NCBI GenBank assembly: GCA_002328025.1
Contig: DCVE01000003.1
Coordinates: 17,222-81,221 of the forward strand
Length of the DNA: 64,000 bases
Reading direction: 5' to 3'
DNA from: Patescibacteria group bacterium UBA2196
GTDB lineage: Bacteria; Patescibacteriota; Patescibacteriia; UBA2196
Part shown: positions 16,311 through 62,643 of the stretch, one piece after another
Position numbering within the stretch: the stretch's first letter is position 1
Layout: each line of letters starts with the position of its first letter
Made by a program: the position numbers and the translations under genes
The notes under the pieces: model-generated
Seen by the model: the letters and a program-made list of their open reading frames with translations, nothing else
Told to the model about the DNA's origin: nothing
Databases searched by the model: none

Positions 16311-16385
16311 TTGGCTCGGGGAGTGGGGCTCGAACCCACGACCAATTGATTAACAGTCAATTGCTCTACCACTGAGCTATCCCCG
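16311..16385 (-). tRNA. tRNA-Asn (GTT)
   Basis: reverse complement TCGGGGATAGCTCAGTGGTAGAGCAATTGACTGTTAATCAATTGGTCGTGGGTTCGAGCCCCACTCCCCGAGCCA; cloverleaf with anticodon loop CTGTTAA; CCA encoded. Confidence 0.9.
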
Positions 16386-16488
16386 AATAAATTTTCAAAA
16401 AAAGTATAGCAATTTTTATAATATCATGCAAATTTTAAAATTTAGACTAAATTATTATAACCTAACTATCAATTTAAAAAAATGACTT

Positions 16489-20184: not shown

Positions 20185-20261
20185 ATAGCATTACTTTAGC
20201 ACTCAAAACTTAAATTGACAACCAATTATTTTTTCAGTATAGTTAATGAATAATGCCAGAT

Positions 20262-20348
20262 GGAAGGGTGGCAGAGTGGTCTAACGCGACAGTCTTGAAA
20301 ACTGTTAGGGATGAAAGTCCCTCGTGAGTTCGAATCTCACCCCTTCCG
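20262..20348 (+). tRNA. tRNA-Ser (TGA)
   Basis: GGAAGGGTGGCAGAGTGGTCTAACGCGACAGTCTTGAAAACTGT... with long variable arm and T-arm GAGTTCGAATCTCAC; no CCA encoded. Confidence 0.85.
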
Positions 20349-20381
20349 TATTTAAAAAAAATAGAATTTAATAATGTTTAT

Positions 20382-20472
20382 GGAGAGATGGCCGAGTGGC
20401 TTAAGGCGGCAGGTTGCTAACCTGTTGTATGTCTTTTTGGGCATACCCAGGGTTCAAATCCCTGTCTCTCCG
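20382..20472 (+). tRNA. tRNA-Ser (GCT)
   Basis: GGAGAGATGGCCGAGTGGCTTAAGGCGGCAGGTTGCTAACCTGT... long variable arm, T-arm CAGGGTTCAAATCCCTG. Confidence 0.85.
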
Positions 20473-20555
20473 TTTCTAAAATCAACGCATAAAATATATC
20501 TTGCATTAATCATTTTTTTCAGTTAGAATAATTGTAATTAAAAATTGTATTCTAT

Positions 20556-20630
20556 GGCGCCATCGTCTAATGGTCAGGACACCAGGTTTTCATCCTGGTA
20601 ATCGGGGTTCGATTCCCCGTGGCGCTACCA
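20556..20630 (+). tRNA. tRNA-Glu (TTC)
   Basis: GGCGCCATCGTCTAATGGTCAGGACACCAGGTTTTCATCCTGGTAATCGGGGTTCGATTCCCCGTGGCGCTACCA; anticodon loop TTTTCAT; CCA encoded. Confidence 0.85.
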
Positions 20631-54325: not shown

Positions 54326-57300
54326 TTAAAAACCAAAATCATACAGGTCAGTCCCGCGTTGATTCATAGTGCTTTTAAAAACGATGCGACTGCCTTGCCA
54401 ATTGACAGAAAAATCTGGTTGAGCAATCAACAAAGACCCCATGGCTGGTAAAAATCCACTCCGATTGTGTATTAAACGCCTGACACCACCCGACCCATCC
54501 GTGTTAACCGCAAAAATCTCAAAGGACATCGGATACCATTCCGAAGGATTGATTAAACTTAAATTAGAAAACGAAGACACAAAAATATTTTGATAATGGT
54601 TAGTTTGCCAATTAGGAGCTGAAAATACCACCTTTTCGGAACCGGTTCGGTGTAATAATAAAGTTACTACGCGACTACTTGAATTAAGTGTAATCTTAAT
54701 AATATCAGCCTGATTGGTTATACCGCTCATGGGGTGAATGGATAAATAATAATTACCAGCTGTGGTAAACATAACTTCTGTGCCAGTTGTATCAAGACCA
54801 GTTTCAAAATTAACTGCTTCGCTGTGCATTTGACGAATAAAATTCATATTCTCACTAAATAACTCTACACCATAATTGCGCTCTTCACGATCATTTTTAC
54901 GCCACTGGACAATCACAAAATTACCACCCGCCGAAATGGTATGACCAGCCACACCTTGAGTTGCATCATTAAACTGGCTGACAGTCCACGAACTGGTCGG
55001 GATATAATTTATATCATTTACAAAATCATATACAAAAATAAATATGTTTCCACCCAAAGTACCAGTCAAACTAGCTCGGCTACGACTGTCATTTAAATCG
55101 CCACCAGTTCCCCAACTTACTTCAGTATATGTACCGCTAAAATCTCTGACCAAAGTGCAAACTAAAGTAGTGACATTGCAACGTTGTATTGTTTGACCAT
55201 TTACTTTATAAACAAAATTAGAATCATTGGTCCATCGTATCTGAGCTTCGGGTAAAACTGTCTCCAATAAACCCAAATCTGTCCCGTCACTTCTAAACAA
55301 ACGCGTACCATCGTGTCGCCGCGCATAAAACATTGAACCATCGCTGTTCCAGTGCGCCACCGCGCTATAATTTAATGAAACACCCGTATCACTGCCACCA
55401 GTATCTACACCGGCCGCGCCAGTTAAGCGATTAACCTGTGTTCCAAAAACCGTATCACAATAATTTCCCCCCACCAGTGGTGGTAAGGCCTGTGCATCAA
55501 GCATATTTAAAACACCGCTTGAAAATTGGTTTGCAACATTGGCTGCACAAACACCGGCACTTACTTGACAAGCAGTGGCAGCTGCATTTCTTTCGTAACC
55601 CAAAAAACATTGCCAAGACTGACAATCTGCAGCACACACCGCATTGGCTGGTGTTCCACTAATAATCGCACTGCTATCACATTGTTCTTGATCGGCAGTA
55701 AAAATTCCATCACCACAAGATGTTGCTGTGATCGTAGTATTACTAATCAGACAGCTGCCGCTTGTTGGTGTACCCCAACAATTAAGTAAACGAGCAAAAT
55801 CGCTTTCATTAATAACACCATCGCCCGTTGCGCTGGTTGTATCAAGACCAATCGGTGCAATATCTAAATTTTTATGTTCATCACCACAACCATTATTTAA
55901 ATAATTTTTTATACCATCAGTTGTAACTTTTTTCCAATAAGAAAGCAAAATACCAAAATCTTTTATATCCACTACCCTGTCGCAATTAAAATCTGCCACA
56001 ATGCTTTGGGCTGGAGGTGGGGGTGGCGTAACAGAATTACCAGTAAAAACAAATTTTATAACATCCGCAATTACTGTACCATTGGCACTATTAGCAAAAA
56101 TTTTTACATAACTACGCGTACTGCTTGTACTTCGTGGAAAGTAATAACTAACTGTACCAAGACGATTCCATTGGCCCGCGTTAACACTCTGATTAATAGT
56201 ACCACTTGCCACAACCGAACCACCGCTATTAATCTCATATGGCACGTTGGTAGCTTCAGTAACTGTATTGGCTGTATTACCACGCCAGCCATGCCATTCA
56301 TAAACATCATAATTGCCAGCCACGCCAATTGTGGGCTTAAAAGTCGCTGTTGCACCAGAACTACCGTCTGTATAAAAAGCACCATAACCTTCAAAGCTCG
56401 CTTGTGGGTATCTCCACCCACTGGTATCAGGATCGCCGTAGTCCCACTGGCTCCAATATGGATTACTATCATTCTCCGGCTCTTTATCCCAATTACCAGT
56501 CAACTGAACTGGCTCACTCCCTGGCGAAGTGTCGTTATTAGGATAATTACCAACCATAATATCAGAAACAACATTATAATCTCGGGTGGTAAAAAGTAAT
56601 ATACCATCACCAGTATCATCGTCGTCTCTAGCAGAATTTGTTCCCAGAGTTCCACTCAATGTAACGCTGGTAAAAGTCGAACCATTATTAAAATTTGGAT
56701 CCTGCCCACCCCGAAAACGATAATATGTTGTTCCTGGGGTATAGCCAGACAAAGCAGCAATCTCGCTTTGAGTAATTGTTTGATTAATAAAAGTCGGATT
56801 AACAATAACCAATCCATTATCAAAAAAACGCGCAGTAACACATCGGTGTCCATTGGTTTCAGAACAATGTCCAGTTAATTCTTGTGGGGCACCTTTTGGA
56901 TAACCCAAATTAGTTTCATATTCGTCATACCACAAACCTAATTGAAACCACGAGCCAAAATTCCGACCATAAAAGGCATTGCCCATCAAAGCTGTGGCTA
57001 AACCATATCGCATATCACTAAACCTATCCTTCCAATATCTCCAATAATTTTCGGACATAGCCTCCACTGCTTTTAATGCCCCGTCTTGAGCAACAACATA
57101 TTTATCATCGCGATCCCATAATCGTAATTTACTGTAATAATTTGGCCAACTATATTGACCCAGAATTCCATACTCTAGAAAAAAACCTTGATTCCAAACA
57201 ACAGTTGAATCTCCTGGAAAACTATTGCCGTTGTTTGCTATAACAATTGTTTTGGCTCCCCCTTTTAAAGCAGATAATTTTTGATTTTCATAATTCCACA

Positions 57301-58363
57301 TATACTGTAAACCCTGATGCCACTGATCACTAATCCAATTAAGACCGTGTTCGTCATAATCTCTTTTCCAATTTAAATCAAAATCAACATTATTAGCCAA
57401 ACTAACTTCACCACCTTCACTATTTAACGGCCAATCAGTTCGATAGGTTGCATAATGCGAACCATCATAAGGCGCAAAATTGGTTGCATCAACAACGGCC
57501 AATCTATCGTGATCAATAAAATATCTAGCTGCTTCTTGACCACTATAAGGATTGGCTGGAGTAATGTTTGGTACCCAATCAGCAGCTTTAATTGGTTGAC
57601 GTAAATATGAACCCGCTGGGTGATGACCATCAATGCCGCTAAGTTCAACCAAAACACTATTTGTTTCATCAACAGAACCATAAGAAATACGATCTGGCTT
57701 ATAACTGCCAAGGTCGGGTATGTTTCTATTATTGACAACAAAAAAACTTGAGCCATTGCTGGCATATGGAAAATTATTTGTATCAGGCGGAACCGACCAA
57801 CGTGGAAAACCATCACCAATAGTATTTTTGACCCTAACACTATAACTTGCGGGTGTTAGATCTTCGGCTAATTGTGGATCAAAATAACGAAACGTGTGAT
57901 ATTGAAAATTGCTATTACTAGACATCATATCTTGTAGTGTTGCCAAAAGAATCATGTTAGGATTAGCCCGCTTAATGGCCGGAGCGCATCTTGCATCAGT
58001 ACTAAAATTTAGACCGACCATGTCAAACTTGGAACGAAACTGACTACAACCAGTAGGATGTGCTTCATTCTTTGGCCAAAAAAAAGCCACTCGCGGATAA
58101 GGTGGGTTCCATTTAGGATCTATTGTCTGCGTTATCTGGACTGTAAATTCACCAGCCACCGCGCCGCTATCAAATGCGTAAAATTTATTATACAAAATTT
58201 GACTGACTAAATTAGTAACCTTAAAAAAACTCAGCCAACTTAAACCAAAAAAAATAAAAAGCGCCGTTAAGACAGCGGCACTTAAAAAAAAATTTATACC
58301 AAAAACTTTTGCAGTTTTTTTCTTTCTGCTGGCCTTTTTACTTCTGTTGATAATTCTAATCAT
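54326..58363 (-). CDS. giant (1345 aa) secreted paralog with internal dockerin-like module
   Basis: N-terminus similar to the 1230-aa neighbour; ADFNCDRVVDIKDFGILLSYWKK...ATGDGVINESDFARLLNCW at about 55760-56000; C-terminal ~480 aa beta-rich. Confidence 0.55.
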   Translation of the reverse strand: MIRIINRSKKASRKKKTAKVFGINFFLSAAVLTALFIFFGLSWLSFFKVTNLVSQILYNKFYAFDSGAVAGEFTVQITQTIDPKWNPPYPRVAFFWPKNEAHPTGCSQFRSKFDMVGLNFSTDARCAPAIKRANPNMILLATLQDMMSSNSNFQYHTFRYFDPQLAEDLTPASYSVRVKNTIGDGFPRWSVPPDTNNFPYASNGSSFFVVNNRNIPDLGSYKPDRISYGSVDETNSVLVELSGIDGHHPAGSYLRQPIKAADWVPNITPANPYSGQEAARYFIDHDRLAVVDATNFAPYDGSHYATYRTDWPLNSEGGEVSLANNVDFDLNWKRDYDEHGLNWISDQWHQGLQYMWNYENQKLSALKGGAKTIVIANNGNSFPGDSTVVWNQGFFLEYGILGQYSWPNYYSKLRLWDRDDKYVVAQDGALKAVEAMSENYWRYWKDRFSDMRYGLATALMGNAFYGRNFGSWFQLGLWYDEYETNLGYPKGAPQELTGHCSETNGHRCVTARFFDNGLVIVNPTFINQTITQSEIAALSGYTPGTTYYRFRGGQDPNFNNGSTFTSVTLSGTLGTNSARDDDDTGDGILLFTTRDYNVVSDIMVGNYPNNDTSPGSEPVQLTGNWDKEPENDSNPYWSQWDYGDPDTSGWRYPQASFEGYGAFYTDGSSGATATFKPTIGVAGNYDVYEWHGWRGNTANTVTEATNVPYEINSGGSVVASGTINQSVNAGQWNRLGTVSYYFPRSTSSTRSYVKIFANSANGTVIADVIKFVFTGNSVTPPPPPAQSIVADFNCDRVVDIKDFGILLSYWKKVTTDGIKNYLNNGCGDEHKNLDIAPIGLDTTSATGDGVINESDFARLLNCWGTPTSGSCLISNTTITATSCGDGIFTADQEQCDSSAIISGTPANAVCAADCQSWQCFLGYERNAAATACQVSAGVCAANVANQFSSGVLNMLDAQALPPLVGGNYCDTVFGTQVNRLTGAAGVDTGGSDTGVSLNYSAVAHWNSDGSMFYARRHDGTRLFRSDGTDLGLLETVLPEAQIRWTNDSNFVYKVNGQTIQRCNVTTLVCTLVRDFSGTYTEVSWGTGGDLNDSRSRASLTGTLGGNIFIFVYDFVNDINYIPTSSWTVSQFNDATQGVAGHTISAGGNFVIVQWRKNDREERNYGVELFSENMNFIRQMHSEAVNFETGLDTTGTEVMFTTAGNYYLSIHPMSGITNQADIIKITLNSSSRVVTLLLHRTGSEKVVFSAPNWQTNHYQNIFVSSFSNLSLINPSEWYPMSFEIFAVNTDGSGGVRRLIHNRSGFLPAMGSLLIAQPDFSVNWQGSRIVFKSTMNQRGTDLYDFGF

Positions 58364-58427: not shown

Positions 58428-59021
58428 TTATTTTTTACTCTCCAGATACACGGCCGTGGTCTCTTTAAAATTTAAAAACAAATGCATGTTATTTTTCTGC
58501 CAGTTATAAAAAAGAGGTTTTAAAAACTTAATAACAACAAAAGCATAGAGAGATTTTTTTACTTGCGCCTCCAATTGAGCGACCCGAGGCGCATAAAAAT
58601 TATCCAGCCAATCAGCATCCTGCATAATTTTATGATAAATAGATAAATTACTTTTACCCAAAAAACGCAATTCTTTCATGGTGTGTCTAATGGCATTATC
58701 CGCTACTAAAAATTTTTCACTTTCTTTAACATTGGCAGTTGAAAAAAATTCATTAATTATCTTAGCGCTTCTTCTGCCTTCTAAAAATTTTTGGATAAAT
58801 CCAGGAGCACAACTTGCGTGACTAACATCATGCCAAGCACAACAAAGAATTAGAAGTTTCTCATCAACTTTTTCTTGAATATCAAGTGGCAATTTTTTTA
58901 AAATTTCTTGGGCGTTTTTTATCACTCTTTGAATATGCCCCCAATTATGTACTGGATCCTTGCTGGTGAGCATGATTTCTTTGGCTTTATTAAATAAAAT
59001 ATCAAATTGTTCTTGGGTCAT
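58428..59021 (-). CDS. HD-domain phosphohydrolase
   Basis: NWGHIQRV...CCAWHDVSH (His...HD metal-binding residues). Confidence 0.65.
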   Translation of the reverse strand: MTQEQFDILFNKAKEIMLTSKDPVHNWGHIQRVIKNAQEILKKLPLDIQEKVDEKLLILCCAWHDVSHASCAPGFIQKFLEGRRSAKIINEFFSTANVKESEKFLVADNAIRHTMKELRFLGKSNLSIYHKIMQDADWLDNFYAPRVAQLEAQVKKSLYAFVVIKFLKPLFYNWQKNNMHLFLNFKETTAVYLESKK

Positions 59022-59106: not shown

Positions 59107-62100
59107 TTATAAAACAATACTCACCAATTTTCCTTTTATATAAATAATTTTCTTAGGCTCTTGTCCATTTAGCCATCTCAAAACTTTTTCATTTTCCAAA
59201 ACTAATTTTTTAACTTCTGCTTCACTAATTTCTGTTGGCACTAGAATTTTCTCACGCACCTTACCATTAATTTGAACAACCAATTCAAATTCATCAGCTT
59301 GAATTAATTGCGGATCATATTCTGGCCAGTTTTCAAAAGTAATTGATTTCTCATGCCCCAAAATTTGCCACAATTCTTCAGCGATGTGTGGCGCAAAGGG
59401 CGACAAGAGAATAATGAATAATGAATAATGAATTATGGAAATCTCTTCTTGTTTTTCCAACTCATTTAATAAAATCATTAATTGGCTAACAGCTGTATTA
59501 AATTTCATCTCTTCAATATCTTCGCCAACTTTTTTTATGGTCTGATTTAAAATAATTTCTAAATTTCCATTTTTGTGTTCTGTTGTTTGAGTATTGAATT
59601 TTTCCTGTAAATTCCAAACTCTATTCAAAAACCGATACATTCCATTAACACTTTTATCTTCCCAAGCAATTGGTTGATCAAATGGTCCCATAAACATTTC
59701 ATAAATTCGCAAAGTATCAGCCCCATATTTTTTTACATACTCGTCGGGGTTAATAACATTGCCCTTGGACTTACTCATCTTGACTCCACCTTCGCCCAAA
59801 ATCATGCCGTGCGCTGTGCGCTTAGCATATGGTTCCACTCCACATTCTTTTGGTACTGCGCCAATATCATACAAAAATTTCCACACAAATCTGGAATACA
59901 AAAGATGCAGAGTGGTATGTTCCATCCCACCATTATACCAATCTACTGGCAACCAATATTTGGCACGCTCCGGATCAACCATCTGTTTGTTATTTTTTGG
60001 ATCAGTATAGCGAATAAAATACCAATTTGACCCAGCCCAATTAGGCATGACATCAGTTTCTCTTCTGGCTTCACCACCACAGACCGGACATTTTGTCTTT
60101 ATCCAACTTTCTACTTTAGCCAATGGTGAATCGCCTTCGTCTGTTGGTAGATAATCATCAATGTCTGGCAACACAATTGGCAAATTTTCATCCACATGCC
60201 AACCATAATTTAAAATCTCTCCCATATTTGATTCTTCAATAATTTTATTTAACAATTCAGGAAATTCATTCGTGCCCATATCATCAAAAACAAAGTGTCC
60301 TTTATGAAATTCAATTATTTCACCGCCCAAAGTTTCGTGCACTTTTTTTGCACTATTAATAATGTACTCGTCATCATTGTCTGAATAAAAAACCACCAGA
60401 TCATTAAAATAATTTTTCAATGATGAATCGAATTCAAAGTCTTTCAAATGACTATCAGACTCATATTTACCCGATTTTATTATTGATGGCGCCAACAAAA
60501 TCACCTTACCAACTTTTTTCTTATTTTCGACCAGCCAACGCAAAATAAAAGCAGTGCCAGCACTGTGACCGATTAAAATAGTATTTTCATTTATTTCATT
60601 TTTTTCAAAAACACTCTTCCATGCCTCATAATCGGGCATCCAGTCATTTGGGTAAAGTTCATTCGATGTTTTTATGCCAGTCTTTTCCAAATTCTCTTTA
60701 AGCCACGGTTTCCAATGTCGCAAATTTTCCGCCGGTTCTTCTTTTGCTTCTTCTTCTGACGTATTTGAACCATGCACAATTATACAATTCTTATTTGATT
60801 TTTTAATAGCATTTTCAATTAATTCACTCTCCTCTGCACATTTCTCACAATACACCATCGGGATCGGCTCACCCCAATATCTTTGCCTGGAAAAAATCCA
60901 GTCATGCAGTTTGTATTGAATTTGTTTTTTACCAATGTTTTTTTCTTCCAACCATTTTGTCATTTTAATAATCGCCTCGCTCGGTTTTAATCCATTTAAA
61001 AATTCCGAATTAACCATCACGCTAAAAGCGGTATCCACAAAAGCATAATTTTTTCGCAAAAATCTTTCTATGCCGATGGTGTTATAGGAATGGGTCATCT
61101 GTTTAATGGCCTCGTTCCTGTCCAGCCAAATAACTTCATGTTTTACATCTTCCGCTTCATCAAGCTCTTCTTTATTTTCATCAATTAACTCCAACAATAC
61201 CGGCTGATCAAATCGTTCGCGCCAGACATTTTTATTATCAGCGAAAAAATGCGACTCAACTTCTCCACCTAATCTTTCTAACGCCCTAACTCTGTATCCT
61301 GTTTCTTCAAAAACTTCTCTTTCAGCAGCCTGTTCTGGCGTCTCGTCGCCATCAATACCGCCTATAACTGGGGCAATCCAATTAAATTTTTTCCATTTAA
61401 TCAACAAAAATTTTTCATCTTTTTCATTATAAACAATGGCAGAAATAGTCCTTCGTGATTCCTCGTCATCATGCGGTTCACCAAATACAGGTCGAATTAC
61501 ATCAACGACCGGCAACGAATATTTATGCGCAAATTCAAAATCTCTTTCATCATGTGCCGGCACAGCCATAATGGCGCCTGTGCCATAACTCATCATCACA
61601 TAATCCGCCACAAAAATGGGAATTTCTTTATTATTGACAGGATTAATGGCTTTTATACCTTTCAATTCAACGCCAGTTTTTTCTTTATTCAAATCAGTTC
61701 TTTCTAATTCGTTTTTCTTCTGCGCTTCAATAATATATTCTTCGATTTCCTTACTATTTGTTATTTGCATTTTGAGTTTTGTCAGCAATTCATGTTCTGG
61801 CGCCACCACCATAAATGTCGCTCCAAACAAAGTATCTGGCCGCGTGGTAAATACAACCAGTTTATCGTCATCCCGAGGGAGTGCAACGACCGATGGGATC
61901 CCCCCGCTCTTCTCATTAATATCAGAATTGCCCGGAATAACAGAAAAAACAACTTCTGCTCCAACAGACTTTCCTATCCAATTCACCTGTTGTGTTTTTA
62001 TTCTGTCCAAATAATTTACTGTATCCAAATCTTCAATCAATCTATCCGCGTATTTAGTAATTTTTAAAACCCACTGCTCTTTTATTTTTTTCACCACCTC

Positions 62101-62643
62101 ACCGCCGCATCTTTCACACACACCATTGACCACTTCTTCATTAGCCAAACCAATTTTGCAACTGGTGCACCAATTAATAGTTTCTTTTTTCTTTTCAGCT
62201 AGTCCGTGCTTAAACATCTGCACAAAAATCCACTGTGTCCATTTGTAATACTCTTCATTAGTTGTAGAAAAAGATCGACTCCAATCAAAAGAAAAACCAG
62301 CTTCTTTGAGTTGTTTGGTAAAAGTAGCAATATTTTTGGCTGTGGCTTCTTGTGGTTTTATTTTTTTCTTAATCGCATAATTTTCTGTGGGTAAACCAAA
62401 AGCGTCAAAACCAATAGGGTATAAAACATTATAGCCCCGCATTCTCCTTTTACGACAAATAATATCCATGGCTGTATTGGAACGCAAATGCCCAGTGTGC
62501 AAGCCATCGCCCGATGGATAGGGAAATTCAATCAACCCATAAAACTTTTTTTTATTTATGTCCTCTCTCACTCTAAAAACTCGCTGGTCATCCCAGATTT
62601 TTTGCCATTTAGGCTCTATTTCTTGTGGTTTATATTTTATCAT
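59107..62643 (-). CDS. leuS: leucyl-tRNA synthetase with two inserted accessory domains (Nudix hydrolase; YdeN/RBBP9-type serine hydrolase)
   Basis: class I motifs (HTGHLRS, CP1 editing VPAHDERDFEFA, SRQRYWGEPIP, KMSKSKGN, C-terminal anticodon-binding region). 1178 aa against ~820 typical. Residues ~392-535 contain a perfect Nudix box GGIDGDETPEQAAEREVFEETGY. Residues ~618-815 contain a GHSAG nucleophile elbow in an alpha/beta-hydrolase segment (IIVHG...LIGHSAG...VILLAPS...FYSDNDD...GHF), inserted between CEKC and CPVCGG of the Zn domain. Confidence 0.9.
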   Translation of the reverse strand: MIKYKPQEIEPKWQKIWDDQRVFRVREDINKKKFYGLIEFPYPSGDGLHTGHLRSNTAMDIICRKRRMRGYNVLYPIGFDAFGLPTENYAIKKKIKPQEATAKNIATFTKQLKEAGFSFDWSRSFSTTNEEYYKWTQWIFVQMFKHGLAEKKKETINWCTSCKIGLANEEVVNGVCERCGGEVVKKIKEQWVLKITKYADRLIEDLDTVNYLDRIKTQQVNWIGKSVGAEVVFSVIPGNSDINEKSGGIPSVVALPRDDDKLVVFTTRPDTLFGATFMVVAPEHELLTKLKMQITNSKEIEEYIIEAQKKNELERTDLNKEKTGVELKGIKAINPVNNKEIPIFVADYVMMSYGTGAIMAVPAHDERDFEFAHKYSLPVVDVIRPVFGEPHDDEESRRTISAIVYNEKDEKFLLIKWKKFNWIAPVIGGIDGDETPEQAAEREVFEETGYRVRALERLGGEVESHFFADNKNVWRERFDQPVLLELIDENKEELDEAEDVKHEVIWLDRNEAIKQMTHSYNTIGIERFLRKNYAFVDTAFSVMVNSEFLNGLKPSEAIIKMTKWLEEKNIGKKQIQYKLHDWIFSRQRYWGEPIPMVYCEKCAEESELIENAIKKSNKNCIIVHGSNTSEEEAKEEPAENLRHWKPWLKENLEKTGIKTSNELYPNDWMPDYEAWKSVFEKNEINENTILIGHSAGTAFILRWLVENKKKVGKVILLAPSIIKSGKYESDSHLKDFEFDSSLKNYFNDLVVFYSDNDDEYIINSAKKVHETLGGEIIEFHKGHFVFDDMGTNEFPELLNKIIEESNMGEILNYGWHVDENLPIVLPDIDDYLPTDEGDSPLAKVESWIKTKCPVCGGEARRETDVMPNWAGSNWYFIRYTDPKNNKQMVDPERAKYWLPVDWYNGGMEHTTLHLLYSRFVWKFLYDIGAVPKECGVEPYAKRTAHGMILGEGGVKMSKSKGNVINPDEYVKKYGADTLRIYEMFMGPFDQPIAWEDKSVNGMYRFLNRVWNLQEKFNTQTTEHKNGNLEIILNQTIKKVGEDIEEMKFNTAVSQLMILLNELEKQEEISIIHYSLFIILLSPFAPHIAEELWQILGHEKSITFENWPEYDPQLIQADEFELVVQINGKVREKILVPTEISEAEVKKLVLENEKVLRWLNGQEPKKIIYIKGKLVSIVL

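Follow-up and report, generated by a model that had tools for sequence, protein, structure and literature searches.

What are two whole enzyme domains doing inside a leucyl-tRNA synthetase (LeuRS)? Aminoacyl-tRNA synthetases are among the most conserved enzymes, and their fidelity devices (connective peptide 1 or CP1, AlaX, YbaK, DTD) form a small and well-catalogued set. Here, we analyzed the leuS gene found in a 64-kb stretch of DNA from a member of the Patescibacteria (candidate phyla radiation, CPR); this whole stretch is hereafter called the window, and coordinates are numbered within it. The LeuRS that it encodes carries a Nudix domain and an alpha/beta serine hydrolase of the YdeN/RBBP9 type, each lodged in frame in a loop of the synthetase (table 1). 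Comparisons with homologs suggest that this protein exemplifies a widespread, mosaic pattern peculiar to CPR bacteria and DPANN archaea, in which a pool of small enzymes would have been linked to leuS repeatedly and independently, either by insertion at at least four sites or as a separate adjoining gene.

The synthetase itself is of the bacterial type. Its sequence scores 931.6 bits against the NCBIfam equivalog TIGR00396 (leuS_bact; cut-off 548.4), and its Pfam families follow one another in the order class I synthetase core, editing domain, NUDIX, Ser_hydrolase, more core and Anticodon_1, with the editing domain PF13603 at aa 221-393 (182 bits) and Anticodon_1 (PF08264) at aa 1032-1140. The best PDB match, LeuRS of Thermus thermophilus (1H3N, E 4e-194), is collinear with it save for two breaks, at which query residues 392-540 (149 aa) stand in place of T. 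thermophilus residues 370-380, and query residues 604-817 (214 aa) in place of residues 444-448. The original prediction, made from the letters alone, that this leuS exceeds the usual length by about 360 aa thus holds nearly to the residue (149 + 214 = 363 aa); both insertion points can be mapped on 1H3N, and the DNA coordinates first proposed for the two inserts lie within a few codons of those found here. In the AlphaFold2 model of the full chain (mean predicted local distance difference test score, pLDDT, 86.9; predicted template modeling score, pTM, 0.75), each insert forms a compact, well-predicted domain.

Around these inserts, the class I motifs are present as HTGH for HIGH (aa 49-52) and as KMSKS (aa 955-959), the ZN1 knuckle as CTSC (159-162) and CERC (176-179), with Cys 159/162/176/179, and the CP1 editing motifs as TTRPDT (aa 266-271) and AHDERD (aa 363-368). 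The Cys pairs of the ZN2 knuckle, CEKC (aa 599-602) and CPVC (aa 852-855), correspond to C439/C442 and C484/C487 of T. thermophilus. Such catalytic, editing, and zinc residues are invariant or nearly so in 60 homologs, and the window protein keeps them all. The alignments thereby show what is predicted to be a complete LeuRS machinery: HIGH, KMSKS, both zinc knuckles, the CP1 editing residues, and the anticodon-binding and C-terminal domains. The leucine-specific domain (T. thermophilus residues 577-634) is absent from the window LeuRS in the alignment to 1H3N. The idea that the inserts replace a degraded CP1 editing site was rejected, given the invariance of the editing residues. A Pfam scan of the whole protein returned synthetase, Nudix, and alpha/beta-hydrolase families only, with no Hint or homing endonuclease domain that would signal an intein or another self-splicing insertion.

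The first insert is matched by NUDIX (PF00293) at aa 397-516 with 52.8 bits (cut-off 21.1), and its Nudix box, GGIDGDETPEQAAEREVFEETGY (aa 428-450, DNA 61294-61362), fits GX5EX7REUXEEXGU perfectly. The domain is modeled with a pLDDT of 89.9 and has the alpha/beta/alpha Nudix fold. The fold and the box were rightly anticipated, and the position needs only a refinement: rather than strictly after CP1, the insert is seated within the C-terminal part of the CP1/editing region, ahead of the strand that goes back to the catalytic core. Downstream of the box, a clade signature reads ESHFFAxNKNVWRxRxDQP followed by MTHxxN, and all 27 invariant columns of the clade alignment, which includes 14 free-standing relatives, are kept in the query. 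The best characterized structural neighbors are Rv2985/MutT1, the Aquifex Ap4A (diadenosine tetraphosphate) hydrolase, Ndx1, RppH, and DIPP/DDP1, that is, pyrophosphatases of ApnA (dinucleoside polyphosphates), nucleoside triphosphates, and caps or RNA 5' ends; ADP-ribose pyrophosphatases fit the window Nudix less well, and NrtR is also among the fold matches. Assignment to an NCBIfam Nudix subfamily failed, the best score being that of NudB (35.4 bits for a cut-off of 103), with RppH, MutT1, NudE, and MutT far below their cut-offs.

The second insert lies between CEKC and CPVC, in the zinc knuckle where an alpha/beta-hydrolase with a GHSAG nucleophile elbow had been proposed. Ser_hydrolase (PF06821) matches aa 642-797 with 50.3 bits (cut-off 22), so that both inserts score above threshold with the Pfam models of the families first suggested for them. 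Its motifs comprise an oxyanion VHGS (623-626), RHWKPW (642-647), GHSAG (692-696, with Ser694; DNA 60556-60570), an acidic residue within SDNDDE (754-759), His783 in KGHF (781-784), and FPELL (794-798). Bacillus subtilis YdeN (1UXO, E 5e-10) is the sole PDB sequence match, with Ser, Asp, and His aligned; a profile of the clade reaches YdeN at E 1.3e-17 and RBBP9 at E 1.6e-13, triad order and HG motif again aligning. An alignment of 34 hydrolase sequences, the query among them, shows no variation in GHSxG, in the HG motif, or in the His, and has only D or E at the acid position; all 23 invariant columns of this alignment are kept in the window insert. Since every residue invariant in their free-standing relatives is retained, both inserts are very probably active enzymes. 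When the hydrolase insert is searched alone, its top matches are complete proteins that stand on their own, with 65-75% identity (72-75% in the case of the best complete genes, of about 188 aa), and it spans the whole free protein, from residue 2 to the last.

Could this architecture be a chimera of assembly, a pseudogene, or otherwise a nonfunctional gene? The source is of metagenome type and the length is unusual for a LeuRS, which would be the grounds for suspecting so. The identical 1178-aa protein nonetheless occurs on four contigs, two of whose places are shown (JGI 3300001580 and ENA ERZ27315072) with the same neighbors; the open reading frame (ORF) is uninterrupted, all LeuRS motifs are intact, and more than 100 homologs carry in-frame inserts of the same kinds. 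The same protein is also present in public databases (P0001). We accordingly rejected an assembly chimera and give the whole class of artefacts next to no credence; the claim of a genuine in-frame fusion flanked by intact LeuRS motifs stands. The gene order, with a divergent M23/LysM peptidase gene, leuS, a small HD-domain gene, and a gene for a 1345-aa Golvesin_C protein, is syntenic with the loci of P0003, a LeuRS without inserts, and of P0002, which bears a different Nudix type. Within the window, we found neither another leuS nor a stand-alone copy of either hydrolase. On these grounds, and within the limits of the window, we rejected the view that the gene is a paralog beside a housekeeping leuS: it is predicted to be the single, orthologous housekeeping copy of this CPR bacterium, and its synteny and orthology with insert-free leuS argue for a working copy. 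The nearest named LeuRSs come from Candidatus Kuenenbacteria, to which the bacterium is probably related.

How general is the architecture? We aligned the 120 best LeuRS homologs, all from CPR, with MAFFT. Their lengths range from about 800 to 1441 aa, and the alignment reveals recurrent hot spots of insertion: site 1, where CP1 begins (query aa ~226-255), site 2 (occupied by the query Nudix), site 3 in the ZN2 loop (occupied by the query hydrolase), and rarer sites in the C-terminal half. Site 1 holds domains of 120-210 aa in other CPR and DPANN LeuRSs, whereas the query has only a disordered loop of 20-30 aa there. Domain type is not tied to site: site 3 is the main place of the alpha/beta hydrolases, which are seen at sites 1 and 2 as well, with two copies in some proteins, and Nudix inserts, though chiefly found at site 2, occupy site 1 too. 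Most site-2 inserts have an intact Nudix box, and nearly all site-3 inserts an intact GHSxG. Homologs with other domains at the hot spots are P0006, P0029, P0092, P0087, P0023, P0007, P0031, P0054, P0079, P0032, P0093, P0090, and P0106. Several LeuRS inserts of 120-200 aa have no Pfam match, among them a C-terminal beta-rich addition in P0032 and P0093. In P0076, a homolog of 961 aa, the anticodon-binding domain shows an apparent internal duplication (HTTLHLLYSRF...KMSKS), which may be an assembly oddity or real.

Among these homologs, core identity, computed over 775 columns, does not track insert content. The closest relative, P0003 (86.5% core identity), cleanly lacks both inserts. P0002 (83.8%) has a Nudix domain just 33.6% identical to that of the query, P0007 (80.8%) a site-2 insert that looks nucleotidyltransferase-like by its similarity to PF10706-positive inserts, and P0006 (79.5%) a Ham1 domain at site 1. 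The query Nudix is instead nearest (55-68%) to Nudix inserts of LeuRSs with only 57-65% core identity. Related leuS genes thus do carry such inserts, as could be expected from the original prediction, yet only patchily.

The hydrolase reveals a further link to leuS, outside the synthetase itself. In a genome scan with one genome per species, we retrieved 431 hydrolase relatives and counted linkage on the best 80 loci. Fifteen of these 80 are embedded in or adjacent to leuS, whereas chance alone would place about one of them within 5 kb (binomial P ~9e-14, a value that ignores phylogenetic non-independence), and among relatives of at least 49% identity, 8 out of 10 are tied to leuS. The 15 linked loci comprise six copies embedded at site 1, four embedded at site 2, two genes directly downstream, and three directly upstream; a seventh site-1 copy, in L087, was counted among the adjacent loci. 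The embedded cases are single ORFs (1000-1383 aa), one of them, L025, being a split leuS. Related copies lie directly downstream of leuS in L003, L014, and L060, and directly upstream in L015, L019, and L087. Separate genes of the YdeN and Nudix kinds therefore do exist elsewhere, and they adjoin leuS strikingly often. In L095 (408-4556), a 1383-aa LeuRS has three inserts, namely a site-1 hydrolase 63% identical to the window's, a site-2 Nudix, and a second hydrolase in the anticodon-binding region. In L025 (1238-4333), leuS is split: LeuRS aa 1-385 are fused to a hydrolase followed by a stop, and the rest of LeuRS is in a separate ORF. Such a split may represent a stage between an adjoining gene and an inserted one, unless it is a sequencing frameshift.

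Several of these loci belong to archaea. L003 (3531-6573), L006 (3382-6483), L008 (3328-6483), L014, L015, L019, L060, and L087 are DPANN-type archaeal contigs with a bacterial-type LeuRS bearing PF13603. On these contigs, marked as archaeal by TFIIB/TFIIE, S8e/S17e, and tRNA-intron endonuclease genes, leuS is directly adjoined by the hydrolase or Nudix as a gene of its own. The free hydrolase P0125 (72% identical), for example, starts 2 bp past the stop of an insert-free bacterial-type leuS, on a DPANN-type contig whose other genes include S17e, tRNA-intron endonuclease, and TFIIE; likewise, the free Nudix proteins P0241 and P0245 (57-66% identity) are each encoded 9 nt downstream of an insert-free bacterial-type leuS, on archaeal contigs with TFIIB and S8e. 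The occurrence of a bacterial-type LeuRS in such contexts points to a transfer of leuS across domains of life, between CPR and DPANN.

A nearest-neighbor analysis of 237 hydrolase domains recovered old, vertically inherited site-3 clades, and the window hydrolase is at most 38% identical to other LeuRS site-3 inserts. Its nearest relatives are free-standing genes (74-81%), and the same is true of the copies in L012 (site 1) and L010 (site 2), from which it would follow that one tight hydrolase clade entered LeuRS at three sites. Counting the upstream and downstream genes too, at least five arrangements join this clade to leuS (sites 1, 2, and 3, upstream, downstream). A hydrolase of the query clade in the ZN2 loop was seen in no other locus that we fetched. 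We infer that the ZN2 loop acquired the window hydrolase recently and independently, from a free-standing gene. Composition gives no usable signal on insert age: the GC content of the hydrolase insert is 0.333 for a core mean of 0.377, 7% of core windows being equally low, and the Nudix insert is indistinguishable from the LeuRS core.

The Nudix insert, for its part, belongs to a small clade found mainly in LeuRS. In an exhaustive hidden Markov model (HMM) search of 1.84 billion representative proteins, just 219 matched the clade at E <= 1e-10. Among the best 150 of these 219, which we classified, 106 are LeuRSs or LeuRS fragments and 33 are short (free-standing or fragmentary); the exceptions identified, with 10 of the 14 longer non-LeuRS proteins scanned, include a prolyl-tRNA synthetase (ProRS) with the Nudix inserted, an M17-aminopeptidase/GNAT/Nudix protein, tandem-Nudix proteins, and a Ser_hydrolase-Nudix fusion. 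In the ProRS (P0416), which is archaeal-type, the LeuRS-type Nudix sits between the anticodon-binding and C-terminal domains; P0417 (1318 aa) combines an M17 (cytosol/leucyl) aminopeptidase domain, GNAT domains, and a LeuRS-type Nudix. In the metagenome scan, 10 of the 10 closest relatives are embedded in leuS at site 2, weaker matches being generic Nudix proteins with no leuS nearby, except L129, which has LeuRS pieces. Free-standing proteins of 156-179 aa (55-66% identity) are among the closest relatives of the insert. We asked if such free genes might be escaped inserts that still carry a flank of LeuRS (VFGEPH, compared with RPGEPL in T. thermophilus), and rejected this: insert-free CPR LeuRSs do not have the motif, which is thus part of the Nudix module.

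A link also exists between the two families themselves. Proteins outside LeuRS that unite both domains occur in either order (P0204, P0205, P0239, which is L037, P0381, L009, L024, L035, and L055): L009, whose hydrolase is 70% identical to the query's, has Nudix first, and L024, L035, L055, P0239, and P0381 have the hydrolase first. Whenever a leuS-unlinked hydrolase gene has a recognizable fusion partner, that partner is a Nudix domain. Nudix is also the commonest family flanking these unlinked genes, but accounts for only 4 of 105 flanking ORFs, among which no dominant conserved partner emerged.

What could such domains bring to a LeuRS? In our judgment, the balance stands about level on the proposal that both are functionally coupled to LeuRS and to each other, tethered there as hydrolases for the clean-up or proofreading of small molecules made by, or bound at, the synthetase. 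Synthetases make Ap4A from aminoacyl-AMP and ATP, and valacyclovir, a useful point of comparison, is the L-valyl ester of a nucleoside analog. RBBP9, the one characterized member of PF06821, forms acyl-enzymes with single hydrophobic amino acids (Leu/Ile, Phe, Tyr, Trp; PMC8866121), and it appears as a valacyclovir-activating enzyme in a citation of Shenoy 2020 within PMC7730578. Taken together, this acyl-enzyme chemistry and the activation of valacyclovir suggest a chemistry fit for deacylating an aminoacyl-adenosine ester or a related side product. The serine hydrolase of the window may then act on alpha-aminoacyl esters, thioesters, or amides whose alpha-amine is free, cutting their acyl bond; its candidate substrates would be tRNA 3' ends that carry a wrong acyl group, side products of the aminoacyl-nucleotide or aminoacyl-thiol kind, and mimics of adenylates. 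The Nudix domain may cleave adenine (di)nucleoside polyphosphates such as Ap4A. The suggestion, already part of the original prediction, that the embedded hydrolases could act on mischarged or dinucleotide products such as Ap4A is compatible with the structural neighbors of the Nudix and with the published chemistry of RBBP9. Most economically, both domains would clear off-pathway LeuRS products or LeuRS-targeting compounds, with selection re-creating their proximity time and again. A bolder version, which we hold only tentatively and think doubtful as a whole, is that CPR and DPANN possess an unrecognized modular system of LeuRS quality control or clean-up, made of a YdeN/RBBP9-type aminoacyl-ester deacylase and a dedicated Nudix pyrophosphatase that exist interchangeably as adjoining genes, fusions, or loop-captured domains.

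Several observations weigh against this proposal of coupled clean-up hydrolases. Near relatives thrive without the inserts, so that their function is dispensable, and CP1 editing is intact, which makes the need for an extra deacylase not obvious. Neither insert reaches any NCBIfam equivalog cut-off; similarity of Nudix fold is no predictor of substrate; and the residues that anchor the alpha-amine in RBBP9 (E108/Y99) fall in a variable, poorly aligned loop of the hydrolase (query aa ~718-735, with pLDDT below 50 at 728-730). The apparent LeuRS specificity of the Nudix clade could stem partly from vertical descent of one old insertion, and 65 of the 80 best hydrolase loci are not near leuS. Finally, Ham1-like (PF01725), ASCH (PF04266), ANT(2'')-like nucleotidyltransferase (PF10706), and unassigned domains occupy the same hot spots, which fits a general permissiveness of these loops. 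Alternatively, ordinary house-cleaning enzymes could simply be parked, without any mechanistic link to leucylation, in permissive loops or in the operon of a long, essential, and constitutively expressed protein, an arrangement that in streamlined CPR and DPANN genomes would guarantee co-expression and save regulatory sequence. In favor of this, many unrelated domain types share three or four loops, insert content is patchy among close relatives to the point that the closest has none, most free hydrolase genes are unlinked to leuS and their neighborhoods have no dominant partner, and Nudix and Ham1 are classic sanitizers of the nucleotide pool. We regard this explanation as possible rather than probable, for it leaves unexplained an extreme preference for LeuRS (106 of the 150 best representatives of the Nudix clade, against one ProRS and one M17 peptidase) and an excess of leuS-linked hydrolase loci (15 of 80, about one being expected). 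Moreover, the five or more leuS configurations of one tight hydrolase clade are hard to explain without selection for proximity to LeuRS, and a separate adjoining gene gives co-expression with no need for loop permissiveness.

The inserts might also serve defense rather than clean-up: the tethered hydrolases would shield LeuRS from inhibitors that mimic aminoacyl-adenylates, comparably to MccF and MccE acting against processed microcin C, with the serine hydrolase cutting the aminoacyl-nucleotide linkage and the Nudix breaking down the nucleotide moiety on the spot. LeuRS is the known target of the inhibitor agrocin-84/TM84, and GNATs such as MccE and RimL detoxify aminoacyl-nucleotides. RBBP9-type chemistry, which requires that a hydrophobic aminoacyl group have its alpha-amine free and which tolerates the ester of a nucleoside analog, would suit such a role; an isoleucyl-tRNA synthetase (IleRS) with a built-in GNAT domain is defined by NCBIfam NF040702, the LeuRS-type Nudix of P0417 is fused to GNAT domains and an M17 aminopeptidase, and a patchy, fast-changing repertoire of inserts is typical of conflict systems. 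This in-cis immunity nevertheless seems unlikely to us. We know of no such inhibitor in CPR or DPANN, Nudix enzymes cut pyrophosphate bonds that adenylate mimics do not have, PADLOC defense models gave no match to the hydrolase and only a marginal one (16.6 bits) over the Nudix box, and no linked biosynthetic or transport genes were met in the window, where no systematic search for them was made. Less credible still is the notion that the inserts are catalytically dead structural or regulatory modules, offering extra surfaces for tRNA or protein binding or serving as nucleotide sensors. Inactive Nudix domains are known as ligand sensors, as in NrtR, and some homologs would match: about a dozen site-2 inserts have no canonical Nudix box (several of them being of other domain types), the Nudix detected by Pfam in P0002 is without one, the site-1 Nudix of P0077 has AE for RE, and P0042 and P0068 have no strict GxSxG at site 3. 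In the window protein, however, none of the catalytic or family-invariant residues is lost (Nudix box, Ser, acid, His, oxyanion HG), and the hydrolase is 72-75% identical to the best complete free genes, which presumably encode active enzymes.

In its design principle, a hydrolase placed within a synthetase, the window LeuRS follows its canonical counterparts. Canonical bacterial LeuRSs (T. thermophilus 1H3N/2BYT, Escherichia coli 4AQ7/4ARC) share the same core, 42-56% identical block by block, and CP1 is itself a hydrolytic domain inserted into the Rossmann fold; the window protein differs from them by two more complete enzyme domains with unrelated folds, at places that span just 5-11 residues in LeuRSs of solved structure, and by the absence of the leucine-specific domain. 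The IleRS with a GNAT domain (NF040702) and the fused methionyl-tRNA synthetase (MetRS) of Mycoplasma penetrans are alike in that a small-genome bacterium enlarges an essential class I synthetase by an extra enzyme-like domain, and gene fusions of synthetases are a recognized theme; the domains fused to the MetRS are N-terminal (PMC13215547). By comparison, the domains of the window belong to other families and are inserted in internal loops instead of at a terminus, and they recur at several sites, with a mosaic distribution and parallel operon forms. The hydrolase resembles RBBP9 and YdeN in its family (PF06821), length (~190 aa), Ser-Asp-His order, and HGW/RHW...W and GHSxG motifs, but is only about 20-25% identical to them, and both are free proteins with no known link to a synthetase. 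The nearest named systems for the Nudix are Aquifex 3I7U, T. thermophilus Ndx1, Mycobacterium tuberculosis Rv2985/MutT1, E. coli RppH, and the axis formed by LysRS, Ap4A, and NUDT2; unlike these pyrophosphohydrolases, to which it is 17-24% identical, the window Nudix has its own clade signature and is physically linked to LeuRS. As for the trans-editing factors AlaX, YbaK/ProXp, and DTD, and for the MccF serine peptidase and MccE GNAT of microcin C immunity, they offer a functional analogy only, with no relation of sequence or fold: small hydrolases or transferases that, alongside a synthetase, remove wrong aminoacyl groups or neutralize adenylate mimics.

Table 1. Features of the leuS locus in window coordinates.
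Feature	Coordinates	Strand	Description
leuS ORF	59107..62643	-	1178 aa plus stop, no interruption; bacterial-type LeuRS with two inserted enzyme domains (TIGR00396, ORF, synteny)
LeuRS N-terminal core, aa 1-391	61471..62643	-	First half of the Rossmann fold, ZN1, CP1 editing domain; aligns to 1H3N 1-369
Disordered site-1 loop, aa 226-255	61879..61968	-	Extra relative to 1H3N and P0003; pLDDT <50 at aa 240-255
Nudix domain insert, aa 392-540 (site 2)	61024..61470	-	C-terminal loop of CP1; box aa 428-450; ESHFFADNKNVWRERFDQP aa 463-481; MTHSYN aa 516-521
LeuRS middle core, aa 541-603	60835..61023	-	CP1 return into the catalytic domain, ends at CEKC; aligns to 1H3N 381-443
YdeN/RBBP9-type alpha/beta serine hydrolase and linkers, aa 604-817 (site 3, ZN2 loop)	60193..60834	-	Core aa 618-803 = DNA 60235-60792
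LeuRS C-terminal core, aa 818-1178	59110..60192	-	CPVC, second Rossmann half, KMSKS, anticodon-binding and C-terminal tRNA-binding domains; aligns to 1H3N 449-590, 637-875
Tandem repeat (GAATAAT) x 4.1, period 7	59409..59437	.	Coding sequence of the anticodon-binding domain; Tandem Repeats Finder score 51; incidental

The remaining features of the locus are of less consequence. The short tandem repeat noticed early on in the C-terminal region is real, yet does not stand as a feature of its own: it encodes a hydrophobic helix, EISIIHYSLFIILLS, which is also conserved in the closest homolog (P0003), so that the repeat amounts to AT-rich codon usage in conserved, trivial coding sequence. Eighty-five bp downstream of leuS and on the same strand, an HD-domain phosphohydrolase-like gene of 197 aa (PF01966, 25.5 bits) occupies window positions 58428-59021 (-). 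A 195-aa ORF is found at the matching position in L169, the locus of an insert-free relative, which suggests that the HD-domain gene may be co-transcribed with leuS. The 1345-aa protein, encoded at 54326-58363 (-), is secreted or anchored and combines Golvesin_C (47.6 bits) with a long stretch of low complexity, and it is conserved after leuS in L169. On the JGI contig carrying the same leuS (L001), an insertion sequence-type transposase pair (HTH_Tnp_2 and rve integrase; 145-1415) lies beyond the M23/LysM gene, ~1.6 kb from leuS. The window also contains tRNA genes for Asn-GTT (16312-16386, -) and a cluster for Ser-TGA, Ser-GCT, and Glu-TTC (20261-20630, +), and a search with Rfam returned no rRNA or other family in the window besides these four.

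Public databases name the proteins discussed here generically ('leucine--tRNA ligase', 'class I tRNA ligase family protein', 'alpha/beta fold hydrolase'). In the literature that we searched, with subscription journals mostly outside its reach, no prior description was found of a LeuRS with Nudix or alpha/beta-hydrolase inserts, of their recurrence at multiple sites, or of the DPANN operon forms. Synthetases with extra domains are already known; this architecture, its multi-site recurrence, and the parallel DPANN operon forms are apparently new.

From the perspective of synthetase evolution, the window LeuRS is not a one-off, as the same two families are tied to leuS by both insertion and operon adjacency, in two domains of life, and to each other. 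If the coupling is not functional, these loci still show that whole genes have been captured in frame, repeatedly, by particular loops of an essential enzyme, a record that may be useful for protein engineering, by pointing at permissive sites of LeuRS, and for studies of genome streamlining. If a modular LeuRS system does exist, it would add a fold class to the known editing factors of synthetases and would be an uncommonly dynamic case of whole enzymes inserted into an essential protein. And if the coupling is functional, new folds (alpha/beta-hydrolase and Nudix) would join those at work in synthetase proofreading and by-product control, the poorly understood YdeN/RBBP9 family would gain a physiological context, and we would obtain some insight into how ultra-small symbionts with minimal metabolism police their aminoacylation chemistry.

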